Both the position numbers and the translations under genes were made by a program. Positions 2,738 to 17,818 of a stretch of 20,274 nucleotides of DNA are shown one piece after another. A model generated the notes under the pieces. The model did not search any database, was not told the DNA's origin, and worked only from the letters and a program-made list of their open reading frames with translations. Source of the DNA: a virus (Duplodnaviria > Heunggongvirae > Uroviricota > Caudoviricetes); IMG/VR virus record IMGVR_UViG_2548877009_000004; one strand, 5' to 3'. Positions within the stretch are counted from its first letter, which is position 1. The number at the start of each line of letters is the position of its first letter.

Positions 2738-3662
2738 TGATTTTTGCGCCTTTATTCTGACTCACGGGCGACCGGACAAAGTTCTGACTTACCGGACGTT
2801 GCGTCGTGCTGGCTATACCGGGAAAATTTTTATCGTTGTTGATGATGAAGATAAGACACGGCATCAGTACATGGCTGAATTTGGTGAACAGGTGCTGGTA
2901 TTTTCCAAAGCCGATATTGCCAGTCGTTTTGACGAAGCCGATAATTTTGGTGATCGCCGCTCAATTTTTTACGCCCGTAATGCCTGTTTCGACCTGGCAA
3001 AACTGGTCGGGTGTAAATACTTCATTCAGCTCGATGATGATTATCACGAGTTCCAGTTTCGGGTGGATCGCAACTATGACCAGGCCTATTTCCCGATAAG
3101 GAAACTGGATGCGATCCTTTCTGAAATGCTGGCGTATTACGAATCAATACCCGCGCTTTCCATCGCTATGTCGCAGGGCGGGGATTTTCTTGGTGACAAT
3201 GGCGGCCATGCTTCGTGGGTGAAACGCAAGGCAATGAACAGCTTTATCTGTTCGGTTGATCGACCGTTCTCATTCATGGGGCGCATTAACGAGGATGTGA
3301 ATACGTACACGAATCTCGGTCGCTGTGGTGAATTGTTTATGACGATCGGTGCTGTCCAGTTAGGGCAGAAACAGACGCAGAAAAACAGCGGCGGAATGAC
3401 CGAGCTGTATCTGGATTCCGGAACCTACGTTAAAAGTTTTTACTCCGTCATGTATTCGCCGTCGTGCGTAAAAATCTCACTGATGGGTGCCAGCCATAAA
3501 CGCATTCACCATCAGGTCACCTGGAACAACGCTGCAGTAAAAATCCTTCACGAAAAATACAGGAAGAAGACACCCTGCATATCAATGGGGGTGACAAATG
3601 ATTCCGTATTCGAAAGTCGAGTCTCTGGCAGCGTGCCGGATGACTGCACAACAAATCGCTGA
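2730..3662 (+). CDS. Soluble GT-A-fold (GT2-like) glycosyltransferase-like protein, function unknown
   Basis: Motif layout matches GT-A enzymes: FILTHGRPDK (cf. IIPTYNR), IFIVVDDEDK (cf. IVVDDGS), ARNACFDLAKLVGCKYFIQLDDDY (ARN...A + DxD). No hydrophobic transmembrane stretch is evident. The ORF track starts it at 2706; I prefer ATG 2730 because a perfect GGAGGAGGAGGA Shine-Dalgarno precedes it. Confidence 0.6.
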   Translation: MRDDFCAFILTHGRPDKVLTYRTLRRAGYTGKIFIVVDDEDKTRHQYMAEFGEQVLVFSKADIASRFDEADNFGDRRSIFYARNACFDLAKLVGCKYFIQLDDDYHEFQFRVDRNYDQAYFPIRKLDAILSEMLAYYESIPALSIAMSQGGDFLGDNGGHASWVKRKAMNSFICSVDRPFSFMGRINEDVNTYTNLGRCGELFMTIGAVQLGQKQTQKNSGGMTELYLDSGTYVKSFYSVMYSPSCVKISLMGASHKRIHHQVTWNNAAVKILHEKYRKKTPCISMGVTNDSVFESRVSGSVPDDCTTNR

Positions 3663-3852: not shown

Positions 3853-4947
3853 ATGAGCAGACCGGACTGGGGGGCGTTGCAGCAGGAGTATATTGCTGAA
3901 TACACCCGCTCCGGTATATCTCCGGTGGCATGGTGTGAAGCAAGGGGACTGAACTACGCAACAGCCCGTCGTTACATCAAAAAAACTCCGAAAAATGCGC
4001 AGAAAGAAATGCGCAAAACTGCGCAAAAAAGTGCGCGAAAAAAAACTGCGCAGACTGCGCAAAGGCAGAACGGAAAATCTCAGAAAAAAAAGGCTGTATC
4101 CGATGCACTCCTGATTGAGGGGGACACGGAAGAAATTTCGTTCTGCCCCGATGAATTCGGTATTTCTGACCAGCAGGCAAAATTCGCCATGTTGGTTGCT
4201 CAGGGGAAAAAGCCGACAGAGGCATACCGACTGGCTGGTTATGAGGGGCAAGGTGCGACAGCTAACAGCAACGCCAGCCGTATGCTTAGAAATGCCAGGG
4301 TTTATCGTGCTATCAGCTACTTCCGCAATCAGTACCAGAAACGCTATACCGCAGACCTGGATTTACTGGTGAGCCAGTTGATGGCCATTGTCCAGGCCGA
4401 CCCCAATCAGTTGGCACAATTTCGCCGTGTTAACTGCCGTTATTGCTGGGGCGAGAATCATCTCTACCAGTGGCGTGATATTGCAGAATTCGATAAGGCT
4501 GCGGCACAGGCCTCCAGAGATGGTAAACCCGAGCCGGAATATGGAGGCCTCGGCTTTGTTGATAACGCCATACCCAATCCTGATTGCCCGAAGTGCTGCG
4601 GTGAGGGAACAGGACAGCTTTATATGGCTGATACCACACTGCTTGATGGGGATGCGCGGCAATTATATGCAGGGTCAAAGCTCGGAAAATACGGTGTTGA
4701 GATCCTGCTGGAGGATAAGGCTGCCGCCCGGCGTGAATTGTTGCGTTTGCTTTCTGCTGGCGGGGCATTATGTGCAGATAAGCGGCTACAGGAACTGGAA
4801 ATTGAACGGCGCAGAATAGAGAACCAGAAGCTGCGCAAAGAGATCGAAACGGTGGAGGATAATGAACATCCCCAGCCTGTGGCGATCAATATTAATGTGG
4901 TTGATGCCAGATTAAGGAGTGATGAAGATGATCTCTCCGACGCTTAA
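3853..4947 (+). CDS. Terminase small subunit (extended form with basic linker and Cys-rich zinc-ribbon-like region)
   Basis: N-terminal HTH (ISPVAWCEARGLNYATARRYIKK) and a small-terminase-like core (QQAKFAMLVAQGKKPTEAYRLAGYEGQGATANSNASRMLRNARVYRAISYF). CxxC ... CxxCC cluster (CRYCWGENH ... CPKCCGEG). Sits directly upstream of the large terminase. Confidence 0.78.
   Translation: MSRPDWGALQQEYIAEYTRSGISPVAWCEARGLNYATARRYIKKTPKNAQKEMRKTAQKSARKKTAQTAQRQNGKSQKKKAVSDALLIEGDTEEISFCPDEFGISDQQAKFAMLVAQGKKPTEAYRLAGYEGQGATANSNASRMLRNARVYRAISYFRNQYQKRYTADLDLLVSQLMAIVQADPNQLAQFRRVNCRYCWGENHLYQWRDIAEFDKAAAQASRDGKPEPEYGGLGFVDNAIPNPDCPKCCGEGTGQLYMADTTLLDGDARQLYAGSKLGKYGVEILLEDKAAARRELLRLLSAGGALCADKRLQELEIERRRIENQKLRKEIETVEDNEHPQPVAININVVDARLRSDEDDLSDA
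3996..4061 (+). repeat. Six direct TGCGCR repeats phased by A-tracts inside terS
   Basis: TGCGCA/TGCGCG at 3996, 4010, 4020, 4032, 4047 and 4056, spaced 9-15 nt, each followed by an A-run. This stretch encodes the basic low-complexity linker AQKEMRKTAQKSARKKTAQTAQRQ. Confidence 0.7.
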
Positions 4948-6229
4948 TGTGCCTCAGGCGCGATTTCTTTCAATGCCCCATAAATTTAAAGCCTATATTG
5001 CTGGTTTTGGCTCGGGCAAAACATGGGTTGGGTGTGGCGGCATATGCAAGGGGATTTGGGAGCATCCAGGTATAAATCAGGGATATTTTGCGCCAACGTA
5101 TCCCCAAATTCGCGATATTTTTTACCCTACAGTGGAAGAAGTTGCTGCTGACTGGGGATTGAACGTAAAAATTAATGAGGGAAATAAAGAGGTTCACTTT
5201 TATTACGGACGCCAGTATCGGGGAACCACTATCTGCAGATCGATGGAGAAGCCACAAACGATCGTCGGTTTCAAAATTGGTAATGCGCTGGTGGATGAAC
5301 TGGACATTTTGCCGAAGGAAAAAGCCAGAACGGCGTGGCGCAAGATAATTGCGCGTATGCGTTATAAGATTGATGGACTTCGCAACGGTATTGACGTTAC
5401 AACCACGCCGGAAGGATTCAAATTTGTCTACGAGCAGTTTGTTAAAGCCGTGCGTGAAAAAACAGAGCTGGCCTCACTGTATGGTCTGGTGCAGGCATCT
5501 ACTTTCGATAATGAAAAGAACCTGCCAGCAGATTACATTCCTTCACTTCTTGAATCATACCCTCCAGAGCTGATTAAAGCCTATCTTCTAGGACGGTTTA
5601 CTAACCTGACAAGTGGTACTGTTTACCATCAGTTTGACCGGAAACTGAATAATTGCGAAGAAGTGGAGCAGCCAGGGGAGCCGATTTATATTGGGATGGA
5701 TTTTAACGTTGGAAAGATGGCGGGAATCGTCCATGTGCTGCGTTTGGGGCTTCCATGTGCGGTAACTGAAATCATCAATGCCTACGATACGCCGGATATG
5801 ATCCGCATCATTAAAGAACGCTTCTGGCTGTATGATGGGAATGATTACCGGAAAGTGAGGGAAATTTATATTTATCCAGATGCTTCCGGGGATTCCAGAA
5901 AATCAAGTAACGCAAGTACGACGGATATAGCCCAGCTTAAGCAGGCTGGATTTAACGTTGTGGTGAACAGCTCGAACCCGCCAGTAAAAGATCGCGTTAA
6001 CTCAATGAATGCAATGTTCTGCAATGCCAATGGTGAGCGTCGCTATAAAGTTAATGTGAAGCGTTGCCCGTTATATGCCGAATCTCTGGAGCAACAGGTC
6101 TGGGATGAGAAGGGGGAGCCTGATAAAAAATCTGGCAATGATCACCCGAATGATGCCGGAGGTTATTTCATCGTTAAGCAATTCCCTATTGTCAAACCGA
6201 CCGGAAGAGTCACATCACTTCGGATTTAA
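4928..6229 (+). CDS. Terminase large subunit (ATPase/nuclease)
   Basis: Walker A-like motif AGFGSGKT near the N-terminus. Size (~433 aa) and position after terS fit. AAGGAG at 4914-4919 lies 8 nt before ATG 4928; the ORF track starts at GTG 4919. Confidence 0.88.
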   Translation: MISPTLNVPQARFLSMPHKFKAYIAGFGSGKTWVGCGGICKGIWEHPGINQGYFAPTYPQIRDIFYPTVEEVAADWGLNVKINEGNKEVHFYYGRQYRGTTICRSMEKPQTIVGFKIGNALVDELDILPKEKARTAWRKIIARMRYKIDGLRNGIDVTTTPEGFKFVYEQFVKAVREKTELASLYGLVQASTFDNEKNLPADYIPSLLESYPPELIKAYLLGRFTNLTSGTVYHQFDRKLNNCEEVEQPGEPIYIGMDFNVGKMAGIVHVLRLGLPCAVTEIINAYDTPDMIRIIKERFWLYDGNDYRKVREIYIYPDASGDSRKSSNASTTDIAQLKQAGFNVVVNSSNPPVKDRVNSMNAMFCNANGERRYKVNVKRCPLYAESLEQQVWDEKGEPDKKSGNDHPNDAGGYFIVKQFPIVKPTGRVTSLRI

Positions 6230-6231
6230 TT

Positions 6232-7638
6232 ATGGCTGATATATCAACACCCAACCTCGACTATAACGATATGCTGGAGGCGTGGGATATTAACGACGCA
6301 CTGATGGGCGGTACGCTTGAAATGCGCAGGCAGGGGGAAAATTATCTCCCAAAATGGCCTAACGAAGATGAAGACGCTTATAAAAAACGCCTGTCTGTGG
6401 CTACGCTACTTCCTGTGTATGAAGAAAGCATCAAGCAAAATATTGGGCGCATATTTGCAGAGCCGACAGTATTGAGTGAGGAAACGCCGGCAAAAATCAG
6501 GGAATATGCAGAAAATATCGACATGGAGGGGAGCCGACTGGATGTGTGGGCGCAGCAATTTTTCAGCCTCGCATTTCAGTATGGTGTGGCACATGCGCTG
6601 GTGGACTATCCACGAACGGATATGAAAGAGATTCGGACAAAAGCCGATGAAAACGCGACCGGTGGTCGTCCGTACGTTACGATGCTGAATCCACGCCAGG
6701 TTATTGGATGGAAATCGAAAGTTGAAAAAGGGAAAGTTGTTCTCACTGATTTGCGTATAAAAGAGGTCATCATTATTGATGGTGATGATTTCGGGCAGAA
6801 GAAGGTGGAGCAGATCCGCCATATTATGCCCCGTCGAGTTGAAATTTATCGACGTAGCGAAGGCACTAATGGCGAATCTGTCTGGACGCTTCATGAGTCA
6901 TGGAATACCAGCCGTGATGATATTCCTCTGGTAACACTGTACACGAAGAAAACAGGATTTATGCGTGGTACACCGCCATTGCTTAATCTTGGCTTGCTGA
7001 ATATCAAGCACTGGCAAAGCCAGAGCGAGCAGGACAATATTCTTCATGTTGCCCGCGTTCCATTGCTGGTGGCCTACGGGCTGGACAGGAATGAAGAACT
7101 GACGGTTGGTGCATCCACCGCTACGATTTTTGAGGACAGAACAAAAAATGGCCTCGAATATGTTGAACATAGTGGCGCAGCGATAGAATCTGGCGAAACA
7201 TCACTTGAGAAGCTGGAAAATCAGATGCGTCATGCCGGCGCTAAACTTCTGCGTGCTGAAAATACATCCACCAAATCTGTTGATCAGACTAATGAAGAGC
7301 GAATGCAGGAAAACTCGCCGCTTTATACAATGGCGAACTCCCTCGAAGATGCCCTCGATAATATTCTCCAGATAATGGCGGAATGGATCGGAGAGAGTTG
7401 CGGTGGCAATGTGGATGTGCGCACTGAACTGGATGTATCTGCCCAGGTGTTTGACTCATCCTCCGCGCTGGCTGTTCAGTCATTGCGTCAGGGCGGTGAT
7501 ATACGTCAGATTGATGCGGTTCGGGTGTTGCAGGCGTTGAAATTTATCGATCAGGATTCCCGTCCAGAGGAAGTGATCGATGAATTAAAAAATCAGAGTG
7601 TAATGCTGATGGAAATCAATGATGCAAACCGTGAATGA
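6232..7638 (+). CDS. Portal protein
   Basis: 468-aa acidic protein immediately after the large terminase and translationally coupled to it (TAA 6227-6229, ATG 6232). Size and position are typical of portal proteins. Confidence 0.78.
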   Translation: MADISTPNLDYNDMLEAWDINDALMGGTLEMRRQGENYLPKWPNEDEDAYKKRLSVATLLPVYEESIKQNIGRIFAEPTVLSEETPAKIREYAENIDMEGSRLDVWAQQFFSLAFQYGVAHALVDYPRTDMKEIRTKADENATGGRPYVTMLNPRQVIGWKSKVEKGKVVLTDLRIKEVIIIDGDDFGQKKVEQIRHIMPRRVEIYRRSEGTNGESVWTLHESWNTSRDDIPLVTLYTKKTGFMRGTPPLLNLGLLNIKHWQSQSEQDNILHVARVPLLVAYGLDRNEELTVGASTATIFEDRTKNGLEYVEHSGAAIESGETSLEKLENQMRHAGAKLLRAENTSTKSVDQTNEERMQENSPLYTMANSLEDALDNILQIMAEWIGESCGGNVDVRTELDVSAQVFDSSSALAVQSLRQGGDIRQIDAVRVLQALKFIDQDSRPEEVIDELKNQSVMLMEINDANRE

Positions 7639-8734
7639 ACGGCTGCGTGATGAATCAATTGCTCATGCAGTCTGGATATCCCGCTATAGCACTGGCGTGG
7701 CTGCCAGAATGGTGAAAATACTGAATGACAGCGATGCGGAACTTACTGCTCGCCTGCTGATAGCACTGGACAGCCTCGATCCAGGTAGTTTTACCGTTAA
7801 GCGCCTGGAGTCACTTCTGGCGAGCGTCAGAGAGGTTAACCGCACTGCTATTAACAGCATGTTTACCAGTCTCTCCAGAGAGCTGAACGAGCTGGCAATT
7901 TATGAGGCTGGTTATCAGTTAAGTCTGTTTGATTCTATGCTACCTGATTTTGTTGCTGATGTTCACCCTCTGGTTGGTATCTCTCCTGATGCACTTTATG
8001 CCGCTGCAATGGCGCGACCATTCCAGGGACGACTGCTCAGTGAGTGGGCCTCAGATCTTGAGGCGGATCGGCTCAGACGCATAACAAATACAGTGCGTCA
8101 GGGTTTTTTGCTGGGGGATACCAATGAGCAGATCGCAAGAAAAATTCGGGGACATGTCAGTAAGGGATTTCAGGATGGTGCATTGCAGATGAGCCGGGCT
8201 AATGCGGCCAGCATTGCAAAAACAGCGGTTGGACATCTTGCTGCTACTGCCCGTGAGAGTTTTGCCAGCGCGAATAATGATTTGATTAAGGGTAAGCAAT
8301 GGTTATCAACGCTTGATAATCGTACTACGCCACAATGTCGAATCAGGGATCGCCTCAAATATACGCTGAATAATAAACCTGTAGGTCACAGCGTGCCTTA
8401 TTTGCAGGGGCCGGGAAAAATTCATTTCTGCTGCCGCTCAACGGAAACGTTCATTCTGAAATCAGCGAAGGAACTGGGTATTGATGTTCGCGATATTTCC
8501 CCGGCTGAGCGGGCCAGCATGGATGGCGTGGTGGCCGGAGATACAACCTACAGGGAATGGTTTTTGCGTCAGCCTTACACCAGACAAAAACAGATTGTGG
8601 GGGAAACCCGAGCAAAGCTGATTCGGGATGGTGGTATGTCGCCAGATGAATTTTACACCGATAAAGGCGAATGGCTGACGCTGAAGCAGCTCCGTGAGCG
8701 TGATGCACAGGTATTCAGAAAAGCAGGGATTTAA
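7619..8734 (+). CDS. Head morphogenesis / minor capsid protein (SPP1 gp7 / Mu F-like)
   Basis: 371-aa ORF overlapping the portal stop by 20 nt. Conserved position between portal and scaffold; call by synteny and size rather than a recognised motif. Confidence 0.65.
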   Translation: MMQTVNERLRDESIAHAVWISRYSTGVAARMVKILNDSDAELTARLLIALDSLDPGSFTVKRLESLLASVREVNRTAINSMFTSLSRELNELAIYEAGYQLSLFDSMLPDFVADVHPLVGISPDALYAAAMARPFQGRLLSEWASDLEADRLRRITNTVRQGFLLGDTNEQIARKIRGHVSKGFQDGALQMSRANAASIAKTAVGHLAATARESFASANNDLIKGKQWLSTLDNRTTPQCRIRDRLKYTLNNKPVGHSVPYLQGPGKIHFCCRSTETFILKSAKELGIDVRDISPAERASMDGVVAGDTTYREWFLRQPYTRQKQIVGETRAKLIRDGGMSPDEFYTDKGEWLTLKQLRERDAQVFRKAGI

Positions 8735-8753
8735 ATAAATCATTTATTACAAC

Positions 8754-8779
8754 AGGCTACCTTCGGGTGGCCTTTTTTA
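8754..8779 (+). terminator. Intrinsic terminator (UUCG tetraloop) after the head morphogenesis gene
   Basis: aggctacc (8754-8761), ttcg loop, ggtggcct (8766-8773): an 8-bp stem with one G-U pair, followed by a run of six T. Confidence 0.65.
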
Positions 8780-8838
8780 TTGCTGCGATCCGGATGGTGA
8801 GCAGCGTAACTGTCGGAAGACTTAAACCAGGTACTAAT

Positions 8839-9603
8839 ATGAAACTGAAAACGGTCGAGATTAACGGAAAACAATACGCAGAAATTGATACTGCTGGCCT
8901 GCCAGTTTATGTGCACGACGATGGTAAAGAAATTGGCTTCGATGCACCGCTGGCGACAAAAAAAATTACAGAGCTTAATGGCGAGGCAAAAAATCATCGC
9001 CTGGCTAAAGAAGCTGCAGAGGAAAAACTGGCTAAGTTTGCCGCTATCGAAGACCCGAAGAAGGCGATCGAGGCACTGGAAATGCTGTCAAAAATCGACC
9101 AGAAAAAGCTGCTCGATGCGGGACAGGTTGACCAGGTTAAGGCAGAAATTACGAAAAATTTTCAGCAGCAATTAGATGAAGAAAAGCAACGCTCTCAGAT
9201 GCTGGAGAAGCAGCTTTACGATTCTATGATTGGCGGTAGTTTTGCGGGTTCAAAATATATTGCCGATAAAATTGCGATCCCGGCAGATTTATTACAAGCC
9301 CGCTTCGGGCAGGCATTCAAAGTGGAAGAAGGGAGGATCGTTGCTTATGACGCTTCCGGCAACAAAATTTATTCCCGCGCGAAGCCTGGCGAACTGGCGC
9401 AGTTTGATGAGGCGCTGGAGTTCCTTGTCGAAAATTACCCTCAGAAAGACTACATCCTGAAAGCCAGTGGCAACAATGGCGGCGGCTCCCGTCCGACACA
9501 GCATGATATTGGTCAGAAAACGATGAAACGCTCTGCTTTTGATGCACTGGATGTTGCAGGTAAGCAAAACGCATTGAAAGACGGTATCACAATCGTTGAT
9601 TAA
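8839..9603 (+). CDS. Capsid scaffolding protein
   Basis: Begins MKLKTVEINGKQYAEIDTAG...; highly charged, helix-rich composition (EEKLAKFAAIEDPKKAIEALEMLSKIDQKKLLDAG). Lies directly before the major capsid gene. The longer track ORF (start 8767) would run through the upstream terminator, so ATG 8839 is preferred. Confidence 0.65.
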   Translation: MKLKTVEINGKQYAEIDTAGLPVYVHDDGKEIGFDAPLATKKITELNGEAKNHRLAKEAAEEKLAKFAAIEDPKKAIEALEMLSKIDQKKLLDAGQVDQVKAEITKNFQQQLDEEKQRSQMLEKQLYDSMIGGSFAGSKYIADKIAIPADLLQARFGQAFKVEEGRIVAYDASGNKIYSRAKPGELAQFDEALEFLVENYPQKDYILKASGNNGGGSRPTQHDIGQKTMKRSAFDALDVAGKQNALKDGITIVD

Positions 9604-9701
9604 CACATTTGTCAGCTTCCGGATGGGAGCTGGTGTCAGGGCTGGATAGCTCATTACTCCATCTATTCACAATTACGCAAATTTTTAAGGAATATTTAAT
9701 T

Positions 9702-10841
9702 ATGGCTGGAAATACCCTGACCGGGTTGATCCCGACTATTTATACCGCCCTGGATGTTGTATCCCGTGAGCAGGTAGGTTTTATCCCTGCGGTAGCAAAA
9801 AACGCAAAAGCTGACGCCGCAGCAAAAGATCAGACGGTAACCGCGCCAGTTGCGCCTGAGGCGAAAACCGAAGATATCGTACCGGGGCCGTCAGCTCCGA
9901 ATACCGGTGATCAAAATATTGGCACTGTTGATGTAAAAATTACTAAATCCAAAATGGCACCGGTTAAATGGAATGGTGAAGAACAACTGGCTCTTGGCCC
10001 TTCAGGGACTTACAACACCATTCTGGCTGATCAGTTCAAGCAGGCTTTTCGCGCCCTTGCAAACGAGGTTGAGGCTGATCTTGGTGCGTTGTATTTCGGT
10101 GCTTCCCGCGCCGTGGGAACCGCAGGGACAACGCCGTTTGGTGTTAAAGATGATCTTTCTGATGCTGCTCTGGCTCGTCAGGTTCTGGAGGATAACGGCG
10201 CACCGACAACCGATCTGCAGATGGTGCTTGGCTCCACTGCCATTGCTAATTTGCGCGGAAAACAGTCTGTATTGTTTAAAGTGAATGAATCCGGCACTGA
10301 ACAGCTACTGCGTGAGGGCGTGTTGGGGCGTCTGGAGGGATTCAATATTCACAGTTCGGCAGGTGTGAAACGAGCGCCAAAGGTTGCTGCAACTGGTTAT
10401 CTCGTGAATGGAGAGAAAAAAGAAGGCGATGTTCTTATTTCCATTGATACTGGTTCGGGGAGTATTTCTGCAGGTCAGATTGTTACGTTCGCTGGTGATC
10501 CGAATCAGTATGTTGTGGCAGCAGCGACCAGCAATCTGATTACTCTTGCAGCGCCCGGACTGCGTCAGGATCTGGCCGATGATACTGCCATCACAGTTGT
10601 TGGGGCCTTTACGGCAAATATGGCGTTTGATCGCAACGCGTTTCTGCTGGCATCCCGTACTCCGGCAATGCCGGAAGGTGGCGATAATGCTGATGATGTA
10701 ATGAATGTTACGGACCCGATTTCAGGGATTACGTTCCAGATTGCACTGTATCGTCAGTATCGCCAGGTGCGCTATGAAGTTGGACTGGCATGGGGTGTTT
10801 CATCAGTGAAGCCGGCACATGGTTGTCTGATTCTTGGTTAA
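9702..10841 (+). CDS. Major capsid protein
   Basis: 379 aa from ATG 9702, with TAAGGA 10 nt upstream. Follows the scaffold gene and is followed by a strong terminator. The track's TTG 9609 start has no Shine-Dalgarno. Confidence 0.78.
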   Translation: MAGNTLTGLIPTIYTALDVVSREQVGFIPAVAKNAKADAAAKDQTVTAPVAPEAKTEDIVPGPSAPNTGDQNIGTVDVKITKSKMAPVKWNGEEQLALGPSGTYNTILADQFKQAFRALANEVEADLGALYFGASRAVGTAGTTPFGVKDDLSDAALARQVLEDNGAPTTDLQMVLGSTAIANLRGKQSVLFKVNESGTEQLLREGVLGRLEGFNIHSSAGVKRAPKVAATGYLVNGEKKEGDVLISIDTGSGSISAGQIVTFAGDPNQYVVAAATSNLITLAAPGLRQDLADDTAITVVGAFTANMAFDRNAFLLASRTPAMPEGGDNADDVMNVTDPISGITFQIALYRQYRQVRYEVGLAWGVSSVKPAHGCLILG

Positions 10842-10851
10842 ACATTCAAAC

Positions 10852-10871
10852 GGGGCTTCGGCCCCATTTTT
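10852..10871 (+). terminator. Intrinsic terminator (UUCG tetraloop) after the major capsid gene
   Basis: ggggc ttcg gcccc perfect 5-bp GC stem followed by atttttaat. Confidence 0.7.
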
Positions 10872-10883
10872 AATGGGGGGCAT

Positions 10884-11060
10884 ATGGCCGGATTAACTAA
10901 AGAGCAAAGAGCACAGCGTGAAGCCGCACAAAAAACGCAAATTGAGTTAGTGGTTATGGTGACCGATTATCAGATGTTTCCCGGCGCACCAACTATCGCT
11001 AATGTTCATCCTGATGAAGTTGACAACTGGAAGGCTATGGGCTGGAAAACTCAGGAGTAA
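10884..11060 (+). CDS. Small hypothetical protein (58 aa), not in the ORF track
   Basis: ATG 10884 preceded by GGGGGG; translates to MAGLTKEQRAQREAAQKTQIELVVMVTDYQMFPGAPTIANVHPDEVDNWKAMGWKTQE. Its stop (11058-11060) lies within the AGGAG Shine-Dalgarno region of the next gene. Below the track's apparent 60-aa cut-off. Confidence 0.35.
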   Translation: MAGLTKEQRAQREAAQKTQIELVVMVTDYQMFPGAPTIANVHPDEVDNWKAMGWKTQE

Positions 11061-11063
11061 CAC

Positions 11064-11459
11064 ATGATCACTTACGTGACCTGTGATGACGTTGATAATG
11101 CGTTTGGGAACGCCTGGACGAGTGAGAACGCTAAAAATAAAGCTGTTTTAATGGCTAATGCCTGGCTTAATGGCTTCAACCTGAAAATTAACCCATCCCG
11201 TATTCCGGAAGAGGTAAAACTTGCGGGAGCATATGCAGCCAGAATTGCCTCATTCGGTAAGTTGTTTCAGCAGAAAAATGATTCTGGCGTTGTTATCAGT
11301 AAAGCCGTGTCGGCTGACGGGGTCAGTGTATCGAAATCATTTTCTGAGTTGCCAGCAAACAGCACTGCATTGCTTGAACCCGATTTACAGCTTGCGATAG
11401 CACTGCTGAAACCGTACGGACTTAGTCGCTCACAAGTCAGGGTTGTGAGGGGGGGATAA
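11064..11459 (+). CDS. Head-tail connector (gp6-like) protein
   Basis: 131-aa ORF immediately after the capsid genes, AGGAG before ATG 11064. Call by synteny. Confidence 0.55.
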   Translation: MITYVTCDDVDNAFGNAWTSENAKNKAVLMANAWLNGFNLKINPSRIPEEVKLAGAYAARIASFGKLFQQKNDSGVVISKAVSADGVSVSKSFSELPANSTALLEPDLQLAIALLKPYGLSRSQVRVVRGG

Positions 11460-11842
11460 TGGGGCTTCGTGAAGAGATTCAGTCAGAGGTTGCCGCTGCT
11501 TTTGATGAGGATTTAGCGGACGCCGTGAGTGATTTTTCTGGTTCTTACGTTACGCACCGGCACTGGGATCCTGTGACGGAAACTGGCGGCGAATCCACCG
11601 CAATCTATACCGGGCGAGGCGTGTTGACACGTTATAAGCTGGGCAGAATTGATGGGATTAATATTTTGCATGGTGACCTTAAATTAACCGCTCTGGTATG
11701 CGAGGTTACGGATAAACCAGCTGTCGACCATATTATTGAGATTTATGATCCTGTATCAAGGCAGTTACAACGATACGAGGTAATTACAGCAAGTGTAGAG
11801 CCTTCCGCATCAGTTTACTCTATCCAGTTAAGGAGAGCGTAA
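11459..11842 (+). CDS. Head closure / head-tail joining protein
   Basis: 127-aa ORF whose ATG overlaps the previous stop (TAATGG). Call by synteny. Confidence 0.5.
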   Translation: MGLREEIQSEVAAAFDEDLADAVSDFSGSYVTHRHWDPVTETGGESTAIYTGRGVLTRYKLGRIDGINILHGDLKLTALVCEVTDKPAVDHIIEIYDPVSRQLQRYEVITASVEPSASVYSIQLRRA

Positions 11843-12223
11843 ATGGCAAAGGCATGGGATATAGAACCGTCAATATTTGCCGGGATGATTGAGGAAGATG
11901 TAGGGCTGAAGATTCGCTACATCGCTATTCAGATTCTTACTGCTATTGATATTGCTGCTCCGGTTGATACCGGACGTTTCAGAAATAACAACCTGGTGTC
12001 GTTACAGCATCCCGATTTTGGTATATCTGATAACGTGGATCCGAACGGTACGATTGCTGTTCAGCGTGGGATCGGGGTTATTTCGAAAGCTGCAAATTAC
12101 GGAGTTATTTATATCCAGAATAACCTTCCTTATGCAGAGGCTCTTGAAAACGGTCATTCACAACAAGCGCCAACTGGCGTGTATGCCAACGCTTTTCATG
12201 GTGTTTTACAGGCTTACAAATGA
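11843..12223 (+). CDS. Tail component (HK97 gp10-like / neck protein)
   Basis: 126-aa ORF; TAAATG coupling to the previous gene and AGGAG upstream. Call by synteny. Confidence 0.5.
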   Translation: MAKAWDIEPSIFAGMIEEDVGLKIRYIAIQILTAIDIAAPVDTGRFRNNNLVSLQHPDFGISDNVDPNGTIAVQRGIGVISKAANYGVIYIQNNLPYAEALENGHSQQAPTGVYANAFHGVLQAYK

Positions 12224-12612
12224 CGTTTACTGAAATCAGAAATACGGTTATTTCCAGAATGACGGCACAGACGATTATTGATGGAAAAGACGTATTGTAT
12301 CCGAACGCGCCAACGTTCGATCCTTCCGGTAAGTTAATCTGGGCGCGGTTAAGTAATATTCCCGGGCAGGCTGGAGTTAATGAAATTGGCGCGGGGCCGA
12401 TTGTTTATCGCACGGGGATAATCATTATTCAGTTATTTGTCCCCGCAGGTTCTGGTTCAAAACTCATTACTGAGACAGCCGATAAATTGCGGGAACTGTT
12501 TGAGTTTCAGGATGACGATCGTCTCAGTTACCAGGCTGTTTCCTCAATAGCCGTTGGCGAAAAGAATGGCTGGTTCCAGCTTAATCTTCAAATTCCATAT
12601 CGCGCGCTCTAG
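12220..12612 (+). CDS. Tail completion / tail terminator protein (gpU-like position)
   Basis: 130-aa ORF with ATGA overlap to the previous gene, immediately upstream of the major tail gene. Confidence 0.5.
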   Translation: MTFTEIRNTVISRMTAQTIIDGKDVLYPNAPTFDPSGKLIWARLSNIPGQAGVNEIGAGPIVYRTGIIIIQLFVPAGSGSKLITETADKLRELFEFQDDDRLSYQAVSSIAVGEKNGWFQLNLQIPYRAL

Positions 12613-12638
12613 CGCAATTAATGACATAGGAGGCTCCT

Positions 12639-13601
12639 GTGAGTTCAGGTGCAAAGGTTATCTCGGCATTTATCCGGGAGACGGTTGCAGGCACTACGCC
12701 AGCAAGTGGTGACTGGAGTTTATTAAAACGCACAAGCTGGGGAGTAAAACCCACCCAGAATAAAGGCGAAAATAATGAGATTGGTGGCTCCCGGATGGCT
12801 CAGGGGGCGACGCCTGGCACTGTGGATGTCGGCGGTGATGTTGGTACCAAATTTCGCTGGGGTCAACATGATGATTTTCTTGCATCCTGTTTCGGCGCGG
12901 AATGGTCAGGCGATTCTCTGACAATGGGGAATGAGCGAATAACATTTTCTCTGGCGACCTATGCGTCCGATGTCGGAATTGCCTCTGTCGTCAGAGGAGC
13001 GCAGGTTGGCTCATGGAAAATGCAGATCCCTAACGACGGCGATATTACAGCGACCGTAACCTTTGCCGGACTGGACTGGGAATCAAAGGCCGATGATACG
13101 AATTTTATCAAAGGCGAACCTGTGGATAGTGCAGGAAAGCTACGTTATTCGTTTAAGGAGGTTTCAGCAGTAAGCCTGAATGGTGTTGCCGGAGGTAACG
13201 GTTTTTGTATCGACAGTTTTGATATTCAGTTCGATAACAAACTCCAGACACAGCGTTGTATCGGGACTGGCTCGCCTTATGCAGGAGCAAATATTCCGAC
13301 TACTTTTACACCGTCCGGTACGGTGACGCTTTCATGGTCTAAAGCCGCGTGGGAAATCTGGAGTAAAACACTGACTGGAGAAACAGTTCCGATCAGCTTC
13401 ACGCTTTCGAATGGAGAGGGGGCATACACTTTCAGTTTCCCGAAGGTTCAGGTGTCAGGTGAATGGCCTGATGGGGGTAATAGCGACATTATCCAGGTTC
13501 AATTGAGCATTACCGCAGCAGATGAAGCACCTACGATAACCAGAAAAAAAAATTCCCCGGCTGCCGTGATCGCAAAAGCCAGTGCTGAGGCGATTAGTTG
13601 A
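12639..13601 (+). CDS. Major tail (tube) protein
   Basis: 320-aa ORF starting at GTG 12639 with AGGAGG 6 nt upstream. Gly/Ser/Thr-rich, beta-type composition. Sits directly before the G/GT chaperone pair. Confidence 0.65.
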   Translation: MSSGAKVISAFIRETVAGTTPASGDWSLLKRTSWGVKPTQNKGENNEIGGSRMAQGATPGTVDVGGDVGTKFRWGQHDDFLASCFGAEWSGDSLTMGNERITFSLATYASDVGIASVVRGAQVGSWKMQIPNDGDITATVTFAGLDWESKADDTNFIKGEPVDSAGKLRYSFKEVSAVSLNGVAGGNGFCIDSFDIQFDNKLQTQRCIGTGSPYAGANIPTTFTPSGTVTLSWSKAAWEIWSKTLTGETVPISFTLSNGEGAYTFSFPKVQVSGEWPDGGNSDIIQVQLSITAADEAPTITRKKNSPAAVIAKASAEAIS

Positions 13602-13649
13602 TTTTCCGTTATTCCTCCTGTGGTACTGCCCTACAGGGGGACGCATTGA

Positions 13650-14111
13650 ATGAGGTTATGGATGTTTATTCTTAATCAGAAAATTATCATTGGTGGAGAA
13701 CGCTGGTTTACGCCAATGAAGGACTTAAAACCTGTAGACGGGTTAAAACTGTTGGTGGCAAGCAGCGATAACGATCAGTATCGCTCCCGTAATGCATTAA
13801 TCCGTCGCCACATTGAGAAAATGGATGCCAGTTTGCACGTCGGAACGAAGGAGTTTGATATTTCAAAGGTTTCCGAGGTGGATTCTGTTGATGATTTACT
13901 CATTGATAATGCCGCTCGTTATCTGCTGAAAGACTGGAAAGGGGTTGGTGAACTGGTTAATGGTGTTGAGGTTGCACTGGAATATACGGCAGAACGAGGG
14001 ATCGCGCTGCTTAAGCAGAATCCAGAGTTGTACTGGCAGATCCTTGCAGAAGCAGCCAGCATCGCCCAGGGTAAAGAGCAGCAGAAGCAGGATACGATAA
14101 AAAAGCCATAG
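13650..14111 (+). CDS. Tail assembly chaperone (lambda gpG analogue)
   Basis: 153-aa acidic protein between the major tail and tape measure genes. It ends ...QDTIKKP with the slippery heptamer A AAA AAG inside its last codons. AGGGGGA lies upstream of ATG 13650. Confidence 0.7.
   Translation: MRLWMFILNQKIIIGGERWFTPMKDLKPVDGLKLLVASSDNDQYRSRNALIRRHIEKMDASLHVGTKEFDISKVSEVDSVDDLLIDNAARYLLKDWKGVGELVNGVEVALEYTAERGIALLKQNPELYWQILAEAASIAQGKEQQKQDTIKKP
14099..14105 (+). other. Programmed -1 ribosomal frameshift slippery site (A AAA AAG)
   Basis: Heptamer X XXY YYZ in the G frame, 2 codons before the G stop. The -1 frame is open from 14075 to 14419. Confidence 0.65.
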
Positions 14112-14419
14112 CTGCCCAGCGGTGGTTATCGGAGTTCGGGGGAGAAAGGGGGGAAAAGGCAAGATGGAAGCGAGAAAAACTCAGGTTGCCACCGATACCG
14201 GAACCAGAAATAGACCCGGTGCTTAAGGAGTTGTTGTACGCCTATTCGGTAATATCCCGTGCCCGACGTTATGCTGGAATGGCTGGGGTGCCTTTGCCTT
14301 TATCTCTGACAGAGATAAATGAATATTTAGCCACTCATCCGGTATTGATTGAGCGCGATGAATTTGAAGCAGTGATCTTTGCACTGGATGACCAGTATTT
14401 TCAGGAGCAGTGTGTGTAG
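14105..14419 (+). CDS. Tail assembly chaperone frameshift extension (lambda gpT analogue; expressed as a G-T fusion)
   Basis: The -1 frame relative to G is open from 14075 and ends at TAG 14417-14419. The track lists it only from TTG 14186 (77 aa); read from the slip site it adds about 104 aa to G. Confidence 0.65.
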   Translation, partial: AIAAQRWLSEFGGERGEKARWKREKLRLPPIPEPEIDPVLKELLYAYSVISRARRYAGMAGVPLPLSLTEINEYLATHPVLIERDEFEAVIFALDDQYFQEQCV

Positions 14420-14539
14420 TTGTTAATTACGTACACTCTGTTACAGAGATGTGATGGTGTCTTTAATTAAATCGATGATGCTCCTGGAGAAAAGCATTGC
14501 GTGGCCTCGTAATCGCTATATCTACTATTATGTCGCCTG

Positions 14540-14566
14540 AAACCCACTTCGCGGTGGGTTTTTTGT
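14540..14566 (+). terminator. Intrinsic terminator upstream of the tape measure gene
   Basis: aaacccac (14540-14547), ttcgcg loop, gtgggttt (14554-14561), then a T-run; AGGAG and ATG 14585 follow. Confidence 0.6.
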
Positions 14567-14584
14567 TGTCAGGAGTTTTAATAA

Positions 14585-17500
14585 ATGGCAGAGCAAACCT
14601 CGCGTCTCGCAATAATTATTGATAGCACTGGAGCGAAAAATAATGCTGACAATCTGACCTCCTCATTAGTCAAAATGACGCAGGCTGGGGAAACTGCTGC
14701 AAATAGCGCAGGGAAAGTGACTAAGGCAACAGAAGATGAGAAGAACGCGCTCGCAAAATTAAAAGCAGCTATTGATCCAGTTGGTGCCGCAATTGATACT
14801 GTCGGTCGACGCTATTCTGAATTAAAGAAATTTTTCGATAAAGGGCTTATTGATAAAGAAGAATATGAATTTCTTGTCCGTAAACTTAATGAAACCACAG
14901 AGGAATTGAGCGGGGTTGCGCAAGCGCAGAGAGAAGCCGAGAAGGCCGGAAAACTTGCTGCCGCCCAGCAGGAAGCGCAGGCTCAGGCCTTTCAAAGAAT
15001 GCTGGACAAGATCGACCCTCTGGCTGCGGCGCTAAGAAATCTTGAACAACAGCATGATGAACTTAATGCTGCGTTTGCATCCGGGAAAATAAATGGTTCT
15101 CAGTTTGAGAATTATAGCCGAAAAATACAGGAAACACGGCGAGAGCTTACCGGAGAGGCTCAGGCAGAGCGAGAAGCAGCAAAAGCGCATGATGAACAGG
15201 TTGTTGCTTTGCAACGTCTGATTGCTCAACTTGATCCTGTCGGAACTGCTTTTAATCGTCTGGTAGAACAACAGAAACAGCTCAATGAAGCAAAAGCTAA
15301 GGGGATGCTTTCTCCTGAAATGTATGAGGAGCTTTCTGGAAAACTTCGTGCTATGCGGAGTGAGCTTGAGGTTACTCAATCACAATTAAGCAAAACCGGA
15401 ATGTCGGCAAAACAAACGGCTTTTGCTATGCGCATGTTGCCTGCACAAATGACGGATATTGTTGTTGGGTTGTCCACTGGTCAGTCGCCATTTATGGTGT
15501 TAATGCAGCAGGGCGGCCAGCTAAAAGATATGTTCGGTGGGATTGGCCCGGCGATCAAAGGTGTAGGTTCTTATGTGCTGGGATTAATTAATCCTTTTAC
15601 CCTGGCCGCAGCAGCCGTTGGGGTCTTAGGACTGGCTTACTATAAAGGCTCTCAGGAGCAGGACGAATTTAATAAATCTCTTATTCTTACCGGAAATCAG
15701 TTGGGGACAACCAGCGGGCAATTGGGCGATATAGCTCAACGTGCCGGGAATGCGGCTGATTCGACAACTGGTGCTGCGGCGGCAGTATTAAATCAGCTTG
15801 TGCGTTCGGGAAAGGTAGCGAGCAGTTCGCTGGAGCAAGTGACGACAGCGATAGTAAAAACGAGCGAAGTAACAGGAATATCAACCGAACAACTGGTTAA
15901 TGACTTCAATGAAATTGCAAAGGATCCTGTCAGTGCCATATCAAAACTTAATGATCAGTACCATTTTCTGACACTTGCGACTTATAACCAGATTAAGGCG
16001 CTACAGGATGAAGGGAACCAGCAGGAGGCCGCCCGCATTGCGACAGAAGAATACTCATCCTCAATGATCCAGCGCACCAACCAGATTAAAGAAAATCTTG
16101 GTTATCTTGAGACTGCATGGAAAGCTGTCGCAGACTCCGCAAAATGGGCATGGGATTCCATGCTGGATATTGGCCGTGAGGCCTCCCTTGATCAAAAAAT
16201 CTCAGATGTTCTCCGTCAAATTGATGAAATAGAAAAAAATACCCGACCCGGAGTTTTCGGGTTAGGTGGCATTGGAGATGGCGGAGCTCAAAATAAAAGG
16301 CTGGCACGATTAAAGCAGCAATTGGGCGTACTTCAAGCAGAAAAAATTGCTCAGGACGTACTAAATTCATCAATAAACGATTACAACAAGCGACAACAGG
16401 AAGGAATTGAACTCAGACAGAGAGCAGATGCCTTTTCAAAACAATATCAGACCCGGGAGCAGCAGAGAGCTAGTGAACTTGCAAAACTGGAAAAGCTAAA
16501 GAATCAGTATTCAAAGGAAGAATATAATAATCTTATCGCTCAAATAAATGAGCGTTATAAAGATCCAAAGCAACCAAAGGCGAAAGGTTATTCTGATGAT
16601 GCAGCCCAACGAATGATTGATCATCTGAATCAACAGAATGCGTTACTAAGTTCACAAGCTGAGTTGACCGTTAAATTAAGTTCCTCTGAACAGGAACTGG
16701 TTAAGTGGCGTCAGCGGATTGCCGACCTAGAGTCACGACCATCATCGAAATTAACCCAGGATCAGAAATCGCTTCTCTTACACCGGGAAGAAATAACCGC
16801 GTTGATGGAGAAAAATGTTGCGATTGAAAAGAATAACAGGCTAATCAAGGAATCCGCCGAAATAACAGCATGGCGTGATTCATTGCAGGCTTCGATTGAT
16901 AATCGTCAGCAGGGGTATGATATTCAGATTGCTGGTTATGGGGTTGGCGATAAAAATCAGCAACGCCAGCAGGAATTACTGCGGATTGAACATGGATATA
17001 ACAATCAGCGTCTGCAACTTGAACGTGACTATGCAGATAAATCCCGTGGAATGTCAGATCATGTTTTTCAAGAGAAAATGCAGGCTCTGAATGATGCTCT
17101 GGAACGGGAAAAAGAAATTGTCAGACAGAAAAACGAGCAACTCGATATTCAGGCAGGAGACTGGGTTAGTGGTGCCTCCCAGGGATTCAATAACTGGCTG
17201 GATGACACTAAGGATATCAGTGAGCAGATAAAATCAACCACGACTCAGATGTTTGATGGGATGACCGATGCGCTGGGTGATTTTGTCACGACAGGCAAGG
17301 CAAATTTTCGTTCTTTCGCTACTTCCGTGATTTCGGATCTTAGTCGAATGGCATTAAAGGCTTCAATTACTGGGATTTTCGACAGCATTAGTAACAGTTC
17401 TTCTGGGGGGATTTTAGGAACTATCGGGAGTGCTATTAGTAAATTTATTCCGAATGCAAAGGGCGGTGTTTATGAGTCTCCGTCATTGAGCACGTATTCG

Positions 17501-17818
17501 AACGGTATTTATGATTCCCCGCAATTTTTTGCTTTTGCAAAAGGGGCTGGTGTTTTTGGTGAGGCTGGACCGGAAGCCATTATGCCATTAACACGAACTT
17601 CCGATGGTTCTCTTGGTGTCAGAGCTATTAATAGTAAAAGTGGTAATGGAGGCGGAGATATTACCTATGCCCCTGTATACCAAATCACTATTCAAAATGA
17701 CGGCCAGAATGGAGAGATTGGCCCTCAGGCAATAAAAGCACTTATGGGGATGGTTGATCAGCGGGTGCAGGGCAATCTGTTAAATATGCGACGTGATGGG
17801 GGAATATTAAGTGGCTAA
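14585..17818 (+). CDS. Tail tape measure protein
   Basis: 1077 aa, long helical Gln/Ala/Glu-rich sequence. Three N-terminal tandem repeats. A hydrophobic, Gly-rich central segment ([36 protein letters not shown]). Located between GT and M. Confidence 0.9.

Follow-up and report, generated by a model that had tools for sequence, protein, structure and literature searches.

Terminators inside the late operon are a known kind of feature of lambdoid phages; they are already annotated in HK97, HK639 and P22, and are also present in lambda. Here we analysed a stretch of 20,274 nucleotides (nt) of a tailed phage (IMG/VR virus record IMGVR_UViG_2548877009_000004; hereafter the window) with regard to three hairpins followed by T-runs, T1 (8754-8779), T2 (10852-10871) and T3 (14540-14566), which lie among its head and tail genes. 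An earlier note on this DNA had described them as strong intrinsic terminators with UUCG-type loops, following the minor head gene, the major capsid gene and the GT chaperone gene, and had implied a contrast with the single antiterminated late transcript of lambda. Both the sequence and a scan of it place the three sites on the + strand at these coordinates. With moderate confidence, we regard T1, T2 and T3 as genuine Rho-independent terminator modules, kept by selection at the junctions of gene modules, which polymerase modified by a Q-type antiterminator would read through and at which unmodified polymerase would be stopped.

The record of HK97 (NC_002167) carries the annotation 'terminator, putative' at all three equivalent junctions, co-oriented within one lambdoid late operon: between the portal gene and the genes for protease and capsid (3309-3335, the junction equivalent to that of T1), behind the capsid gene (5192-5213, equivalent to T2) and immediately upstream of the tape-measure gene, where it follows the moron gp15 (8398-8422, the positional analogue of T3). 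It further lists putative terminators at 6692-6719, 7443-7462 and elsewhere, and such sites stand before and after the major tail gene. HK97 differs in that it has a protease and an HK97-type capsid where the window has a scaffold and a P22-type coat, in that the hairpin sequences are unrelated, and in that its tube gene is bracketed by terminators, whereas there is no site after the tube gene of the window (12639-13601, + strand). HK639 (NC_016158) has a homologous head module with a capsid protein 75% identical to that of the window. Its record annotates as 'terminator' the equivalent of T1 (4901-4922) and three sites in the tail region (9019-9040, 10003-10029 and 10850-10873); an equivalent of T2 (6918-6931), absent from the annotation, was found by our scan. 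HK639 differs by another tail module, whose tube gene has a terminator on either side, and by a small open reading frame (ORF) between the Mu-F-type gene and the T1 equivalent. Since HK639 is in culture and shares this head module, it is a practical test system.

The implied contrast with lambda did not hold. Lambda has a Q-antiterminated late operon with tR', and hairpin and T-run sites, detected with the same scoring function, flank its capsid gene E (6101-6114 before E; 7164-7179, UGGCCC-UUCG-GGGCCA, right after E), with further sites before and after J. The hairpins flanking E are not annotated in the lambda record. The head genes of lambda are unrelated to those of the window, and its G/T and H genes overlap, so that there is no analogue of T3. 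The genome paper of phage L (PMC8022706), a P22-like podovirus, discusses a single such site, an intra-operon terminator after the procapsid module, whose roles 'are not known'; partial termination, or the stopping of non-antiterminated transcription, are given as possibilities. Graded expression and insulation, the two roles put forward in the earlier note, are thus the standard proposals, already contained in that paper, and are not new. With the terminators of the window, the pattern that is annotated in HK97, and on which there are notes for P22 and phage L, gains one more lineage, one that is common in E. coli.

Every hairpin with a T-tail, on both strands, was scored by a d'Aubenton-Carafa-type function, and 80 dinucleotide shuffles of the whole window served as chance control. 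T1 scored 45.5 and T3 29.3, values reached in 0/80 and 1/80 shuffles, respectively; both are beyond chance by themselves. The score of T2 (11.7) was reached in 34 of the 80 shuffles, about 0.5 times per shuffled strand. The designation as strong terminators therefore suits T1 and T3 and fails for T2, which would exceed chance only through its conservation and not by score. In a consensus scan of the + strand the three sites top the list, a terminator behind the trkG gene (T0; score 35.7) aside. All genes considered in the window are on the + strand, and T1, T2 and T3 are co-oriented with them and intergenic. Although shuffled sequence often yields a hairpin as good as T2, the results for T1 and T3, together with the position, orientation and conservation of all three sites, lead us to reject the notion of chance hairpins beside T-rich DNA.

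For comparison of T1 and T2, a scan with the capsid protein, limited to one genome per species, gave 37 loci with 71-100% protein identity from Escherichia, Shigella, Citrobacter, Serratia, Providencia, Rahnella, Photorhabdus, Tatumella, Erwinia, Pectobacterium, Enterobacter, Kluyvera, Gilliamella, Tolumonas and other genera. T1 lies between the Mu-F-type head morphogenesis gene, the 'minor head' gene of the earlier note (7619-8734; PF04233; phrog_241, E = 6e-183), and a scaffold-like gene (8839-9603; DUF6651; phrog_206, head scaffolding protein), and begins 19 nt past the stop of the former (8734). Its hairpin (8754-8773) has a stem of eight pairs, AGGCUACC/GGUGGCCU, closed by a UUCG loop and followed by U6; the fold has an energy of -13.8 kcal/mol (z = -3.0). 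A hairpin of this type with a U-tract stands at the same junction in 31/31 loci with sufficient flank (31 of 34 in all, the remaining three being without upstream flank). Among the relatives the hairpin takes 21 different sequences, and each distinct variant found has T at seven of the first eight bases after the stem. In their alignment (A1) 95.6% of the cells are paired, compared with 28-51% once the 3' partners have been shifted by 1-3 columns; both sides are altered in 14 pairs, and the observed values were matched by none of 500 shuffles. No part of T1 is more constant than the U-tract, whose T columns are invariant in A1. Conservation of the U-tract besides that of the stem points to an element which acts on the polymerase. 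What is added here to the known pattern is this clear purifying and compensatory selection on the elements across genera, U-tract included.

Two further observations concern the T1 junction. In one Raoultella and one Leclercia prophage the position of T1 holds a tandem of terminators, about 40 nt apart (L022 3016-3075; L030 3085-3143). The small ORF of HK639 (L040 4785-4901) is unannotated, has 38 codons and encodes a hydrophobic peptide; the T1 junction may thus also host morons.

T2 follows directly on the major capsid gene (9702-10841; P22 coat family by Pfam and PHROG matches), as stated in the earlier note. The hairpin (10852-10865), GGGGC-UUCG-GCCCC, starts 10 nt past the capsid stop (10841), and T2 ends 12 nt upstream of the next ATG. 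Its stem consists of five G-C pairs, and its T-run is broken, an A standing between the stem and U5. Nearly all capsid loci show the same succession of capsid stop, spacer, hairpin of the GGGGC-UNCG-GCCCC type, U-run, Shine-Dalgarno sequence and next ATG. The spacer between the capsid stop and the hairpin varies freely in sequence and length (5-18 nt). Compensatory variants of the stem occur occasionally (GGGGA/UCCCC, GGGGG/CCCCC), as do differing loops, and every variant detected has a U-tract, with T at 4-8 of the first eight bases (four being the minimum of the scan). The U-run directly follows the stem in nearly all relatives and in P22, in contrast to the A + U5 of the window.

The same hairpin is found in P22 (NC_002371; L121), where a stem_loop at 6102-6119 after coat gene 5 bears the record's note 'similar in location to stem-loops in phage HK97 and phage lambda'. 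It reads GGGGCTGCGGCCCC followed by TTTCTTT, that is, a hairpin GGGGC-UGCG-GCCCC of 14 nt like that of T2, identical to the T2 variants of two of our loci (L015 and L026). A Shine-Dalgarno sequence and a small ORF come after the UUUCUUU of the transcript. P22 has no long scaffold leader and no analogue of T1 or T3. The coat proteins of P22 and of the window share only about 21% identity over 165 residues, and the occurrence of one GGGGC-UNCG-GCCCC hairpin behind coat genes so far diverged is a second addition to the known pattern. The two 14-nt hairpins are nearly identical, which could mean that both lineages converged on the shortest of the very stable hairpins, or that the junction was passed on horizontally. 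In the lineage of the window, the CCCC in the 3' arm of T2 can form pairs with the Shine-Dalgarno sequence of the following 58-codon gene, an unusual GGGGGG (10861-10883), and this pairing is preferred in the minimum-energy fold of 56 nt. As a conserved feature it was rejected, being confined to this lineage; relatives carry GGAGG.

T3 lies 16 nt upstream of the ATG of the tape-measure gene (14585-17818; PHROG match). Its hairpin (14540-14562), (GAAA)CCCAC-UUCGCG-GUGGG(UUU), has a stem of 6-10 pairs with U6 and GUUGU after it. The UUCG-type loops described earlier were thus found in T1 and T2; the loop of T3 is UUCGCG, with a 2-nt CG insertion relative to close relatives, which read CCCAC-UUCG-GUGGG followed by a T-run. 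Nor does T3 directly follow the chaperone gene. The tail assembly chaperone (13752-14419; phrog_313; weak PF23812 match) consists of G (ydaY), which stops at 14111, and of its extension T by -1 frameshift, for which a slippery A_AAA_AAG is present at 14099-14105, 7 nt before the G stop, the -1 frame being open to 14419. Between the end of the T frame and T3 there are 120 nt of non-coding DNA (14420-14539), where HK97 has the moron gp15, whose end is marked by its T3 analogue. The RefSeq annotation gives ydaY (G) alone, and the GT fusion is unannotated in the E. coli records examined.

The T3 junction was compared among 80 viral contigs with the same chaperone. Relatives with 78-81% chaperone identity have either an unrelated hairpin and T-run immediately before the tape-measure start (L114, L117) or an insert; an unrelated terminator likewise stands at this junction in L004 and L020. 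The inserts, small genes for hydrophobic (membrane) proteins or other DNA, mark the junction as an insertion hot spot (L115, L118, L119, L116, L120); L115, L118 and L119 do carry a small gene between chaperone and tape measure, and in L115 and L118 a terminator follows the insert. The sequence of T3 thus turns over at constant position, as selection for a terminator-type element predicts. These inserts, the non-coding DNA before T3, the moron gp15 with its terminator in HK97 and the 38-codon ORF of HK639 would also suit a different explanation, by which the sites are scars of modular exchange or of lost morons without present function, T3 being the leftover terminator of a small inserted gene. 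We consider this very improbable, since T1 and T2 are kept across genera with compensatory changes while the adjacent non-coding bases vary freely, and since the insert-free relatives L114 and L117 hold unrelated hairpins with T-runs at the T3 junction. T3 as the end of an intact moron cassette of the HK97 gp15 type was rejected, because 14420-14539 contains no conserved ORF; the sole ORF near T3 (14497-14622) crosses the hairpin, and among close relatives the 2-nt indel in the loop disrupts its reading frame.

The earlier note had supposed Q-type antitermination, and this assumption gained support. In a complete prophage 100% identical to the window (L001), a Q-like gene, located outside the window (L001 9651-10193), encodes a DUF1133 protein (E = 3e-109) which passes the cut-off of Phage_antitermQ (PF06530; 28 bits, cut-off 26). 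Downstream of it, pattern searches place a promoter-like site and terminator-like hairpins at L001 10274-10299 and 11208-11229, upstream of the holin gene. The comparison thus supports an operon of the Q-antiterminated kind. With these two sites and T0, the prophage has more terminator-like sites than the three originally listed. T0 (1889-1925, + strand; hairpin 1889-1919) follows the trkG moron and is the strongest terminator hairpin in the window, with energies of -21.5 and -22.5 kcal/mol in two calculations (z = -4.2 for the latter). It lies inside the late transcription unit, between the lysis and terminase genes.

Starting at the late promoter, RNA polymerase modified by the prophage's Q-like protein would pass T1-T3. 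Before the head genes it would already have crossed the two promoter-proximal terminators and the terminator of trkG; since late transcription crosses the latter, the late complex must presumably resist terminators, and T1-T3 would hardly be major barriers to it. Unmodified polymerase arriving from the promoter of the trkG moron, from chance promoters or by read-in would be halted at the sites, and the head and tail genes would thereby be expressed only when the antiterminator is made, in strict dependence on Q. Within the long mRNA, the hairpins would probably act in addition as stops for 3' exonucleases which bracket the scaffold-capsid message. The observations behind this proposal are the anatomy, conservation, covariation and positions of the sites, the Q-like gene and the upstream terminators; from these we infer read-through by Q, termination of unmodified polymerase and effects on the level or stability of the mRNA.

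Several points weigh against this proposal. T2 of the window may be a poor terminator even for unmodified polymerase, given the A in its U-tract and a stem of only 5 base pairs (bp). Hairpins of the T2 type also lie 3' of the capsid genes of Vibrio SSP002, Paraglaciecola JLT2 and Caulobacter DMCA, which have the same head module. These suggest a role in the lytic cycle itself, and insulation of the structural genes in the lysogen, one of the functions proposed in the earlier note, fails as the only role. Moreover, the genes whose products are needed abundantly are bracketed by hairpins, the capsid gene here and the capsid and tube genes in HK97 and HK639; a pure role in stopping unmodified polymerase does not predict this. 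Finally, the Rac prophage of E. coli K-12 retains a copy of T3 (NC_000913.3, about 1426409-1426436), and the K-12 Term-seq tables of Adams et al. 2021 (PMC7815308) have no entry for a 3' end within 1426400-1426499. Nothing can be concluded from this, since K-12 Rac is a deleted remnant, matching the window at 1-2196 and 13760-15519 only, and is without the stretch between ydaW and the lysis-gene remnants in which the full prophage has the Q-like gene and the promoter-like site. The trkG terminator is also present in K-12 Rac, where the same study reports Rho-dependent termination in a region at 1425351, by the foot of the trkG hairpin, and no curated 3' end.

The other function proposed earlier, graded expression, would make leaky terminators of the sites: Q-modified polymerase would partly stop at each of them, so that in the lytic cycle the upstream genes yield more mRNA. 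T2 after the capsid gene and T3 before the tape-measure gene are indeed places of falling protein demand. Leaky terminators are so used in T7 and are widely seen in phage LUZ7 (PMC9163698), and capsid-gene terminators recur in other phages with the same head module, e.g. Vibrio SSP002. At T1 the direction is wrong, as this site lies between genes for low-copy proteins (terminase, portal, Mu-F) and those for the proteins of highest copy number (scaffold, capsid), and would cut the mRNA of the latter relative to the former, opposite to the stoichiometry needed. In HK97 and HK639 a terminator likewise stands in front of the major tail gene. The ratios of the late proteins of lambda were reportedly ascribed, by Sampson and colleagues in 1988, to translation initiation on a roughly uniform mRNA. 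We therefore find graded expression an unlikely account of the three sites taken together; that it is not the whole story, because sites also precede the most abundant structural genes, is a third addition made here.

The bracketing of abundantly needed genes would also suit hairpins that act mainly after transcription. The late mRNA would be cut in the U/A-rich stretch after the hairpins, UUCG hairpins would block 3' exonucleases, and separately stable segments, such as a scaffold-capsid mRNA, would result, with termination being incidental. GC stems capped by C(UUCG)G loops have exceptional stability; such loops are found in T1, T2 and the T3 of close relatives, and hairpins stand on both sides of scaffold and capsid here, of lambda E, and of capsid and tube in HK97 and HK639. 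However, a hairpin can bar exonucleases without any U-tract, whereas in T1 nothing varies less than the U-tract, and all T2 variants detected have one. We consider a mainly post-transcriptional role of the sites doubtful.

Downstream of T1 we found another conserved RNA element. The interval of 59 nt between T1 and the scaffold ATG is conserved as small hairpins; the window has hairpins A (8782-8805) and B (about 8811-8820) in the leader of the scaffold gene (8780-8820, + strand), with C-GGAU-G / C-GGAA-G loops, and a third hairpin, C, is present in many relatives. A second copy of the two-hairpin motif is located in the 98-nt spacer between scaffold and capsid genes (9609-9654, + strand), where one sub-lineage, including the window, has hairpins D (centre 9621, 11-bp stem) and E (centre 9644) with GGAU loops. 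The loops of the motif are spaced about 23-25 nt apart. In the corresponding alignment (A2) 94% of the cells are paired, compared with 31-53% after sliding, 11 pairs are changed on both sides and none of 500 shuffles matched these values. RNAalifold independently predicts D and E, and a single-sequence fold of 8750-8845 yields T1, A and B.

A covariance model (R1) was built from D and E only. R1 matches A and B downstream of T1 in every locus with 21-38 bits, including HK639 (L040 4927-4972), which shares the GGAU hairpins behind its T1 equivalent, and the window (20.8 bits, E = 4e-4). In Caulobacter phage DMCA it finds the same spacer between scaffold and capsid genes (L124 2386-2430; 42 bits, E = 3e-11). 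Nothing credible was found by R1 in lambda, HK97 or P22. A search of the whole window with Rfam 15 gave no match at gathering score, and only sub-threshold noise at 8700-8900 and 9590-9720. Hairpins with GGAW tetraloops are not enriched across the window (4 observed, 5.9 expected), so that the motif is local to the two leaders. A with B and D with E are copies of one undescribed two-hairpin motif, of which each scaffold-capsid cassette has one or two. An alternative pairing between T1 and hairpin A, in the manner of an attenuator-like switch, is by inspection possible in some relatives and not in the window, and was dropped.

Speculatively, the UUCG hairpins of T1 and T2 could bound a self-contained post-transcriptional unit, in which the GGAU/GGAA motif controls translation or stability of the scaffold-capsid message as an operator for a dimeric RNA-binding protein; we hold this to be unlikely. 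Candidate binders may be the phage scaffold or capsid protein, by way of autoregulation, or a host GGA-binding protein such as CsrA. Autoregulation of the scaffold is known genetically in P22. CsrA comes into question because of its recognition of GGA in loops; the position of GGA at the first three bases of the tetraloop and the presence of the motif in a Caulobacter phage are reasons to consider a phage-encoded binder. The literature on CsrA and phage capsid leaders yielded nothing relevant. Strongly covarying, undescribed and part of the leaders of those two head genes whose expression is highest, the GGAU double hairpin is a more promising lead than the terminators.

Concerning its origin, the annotated neighbours ydaS, ydaT, ydaU, ydaV, trkG, ynaK, ydaY and tfaR show that the window is the late part of an intact E. 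coli prophage, lambdoid and of the Rac type. Between 7600 and 15000 it matches the E. coli APEC E12049 chromosome with 100% identity; this region is present in 1211 of the 5426 complete genomes of E. coli and has matches of at least 99% in ten induced-phage records. On the + strand, a lysis-gene remnant is followed by trkG, ynaK, the small and large terminase genes, the portal gene and the Mu-F-type head morphogenesis gene; then come the scaffold-like gene, the P22-type capsid gene, a 58-codon gene, four connector genes, the tail terminator gene and the tube gene, and finally the chaperone G with its -1 frameshift extension T, the tape-measure gene and M, L, K and I. The trkG gene (351-1925 in the window; 1423782-1425360 in K-12) is a moron within the late operon. 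The 58-residue protein (MAGLTKEQR...; phrog_1514, of unknown function), encoded on the + strand directly 3' of T2 (10884-11060), is kept in all relatives.

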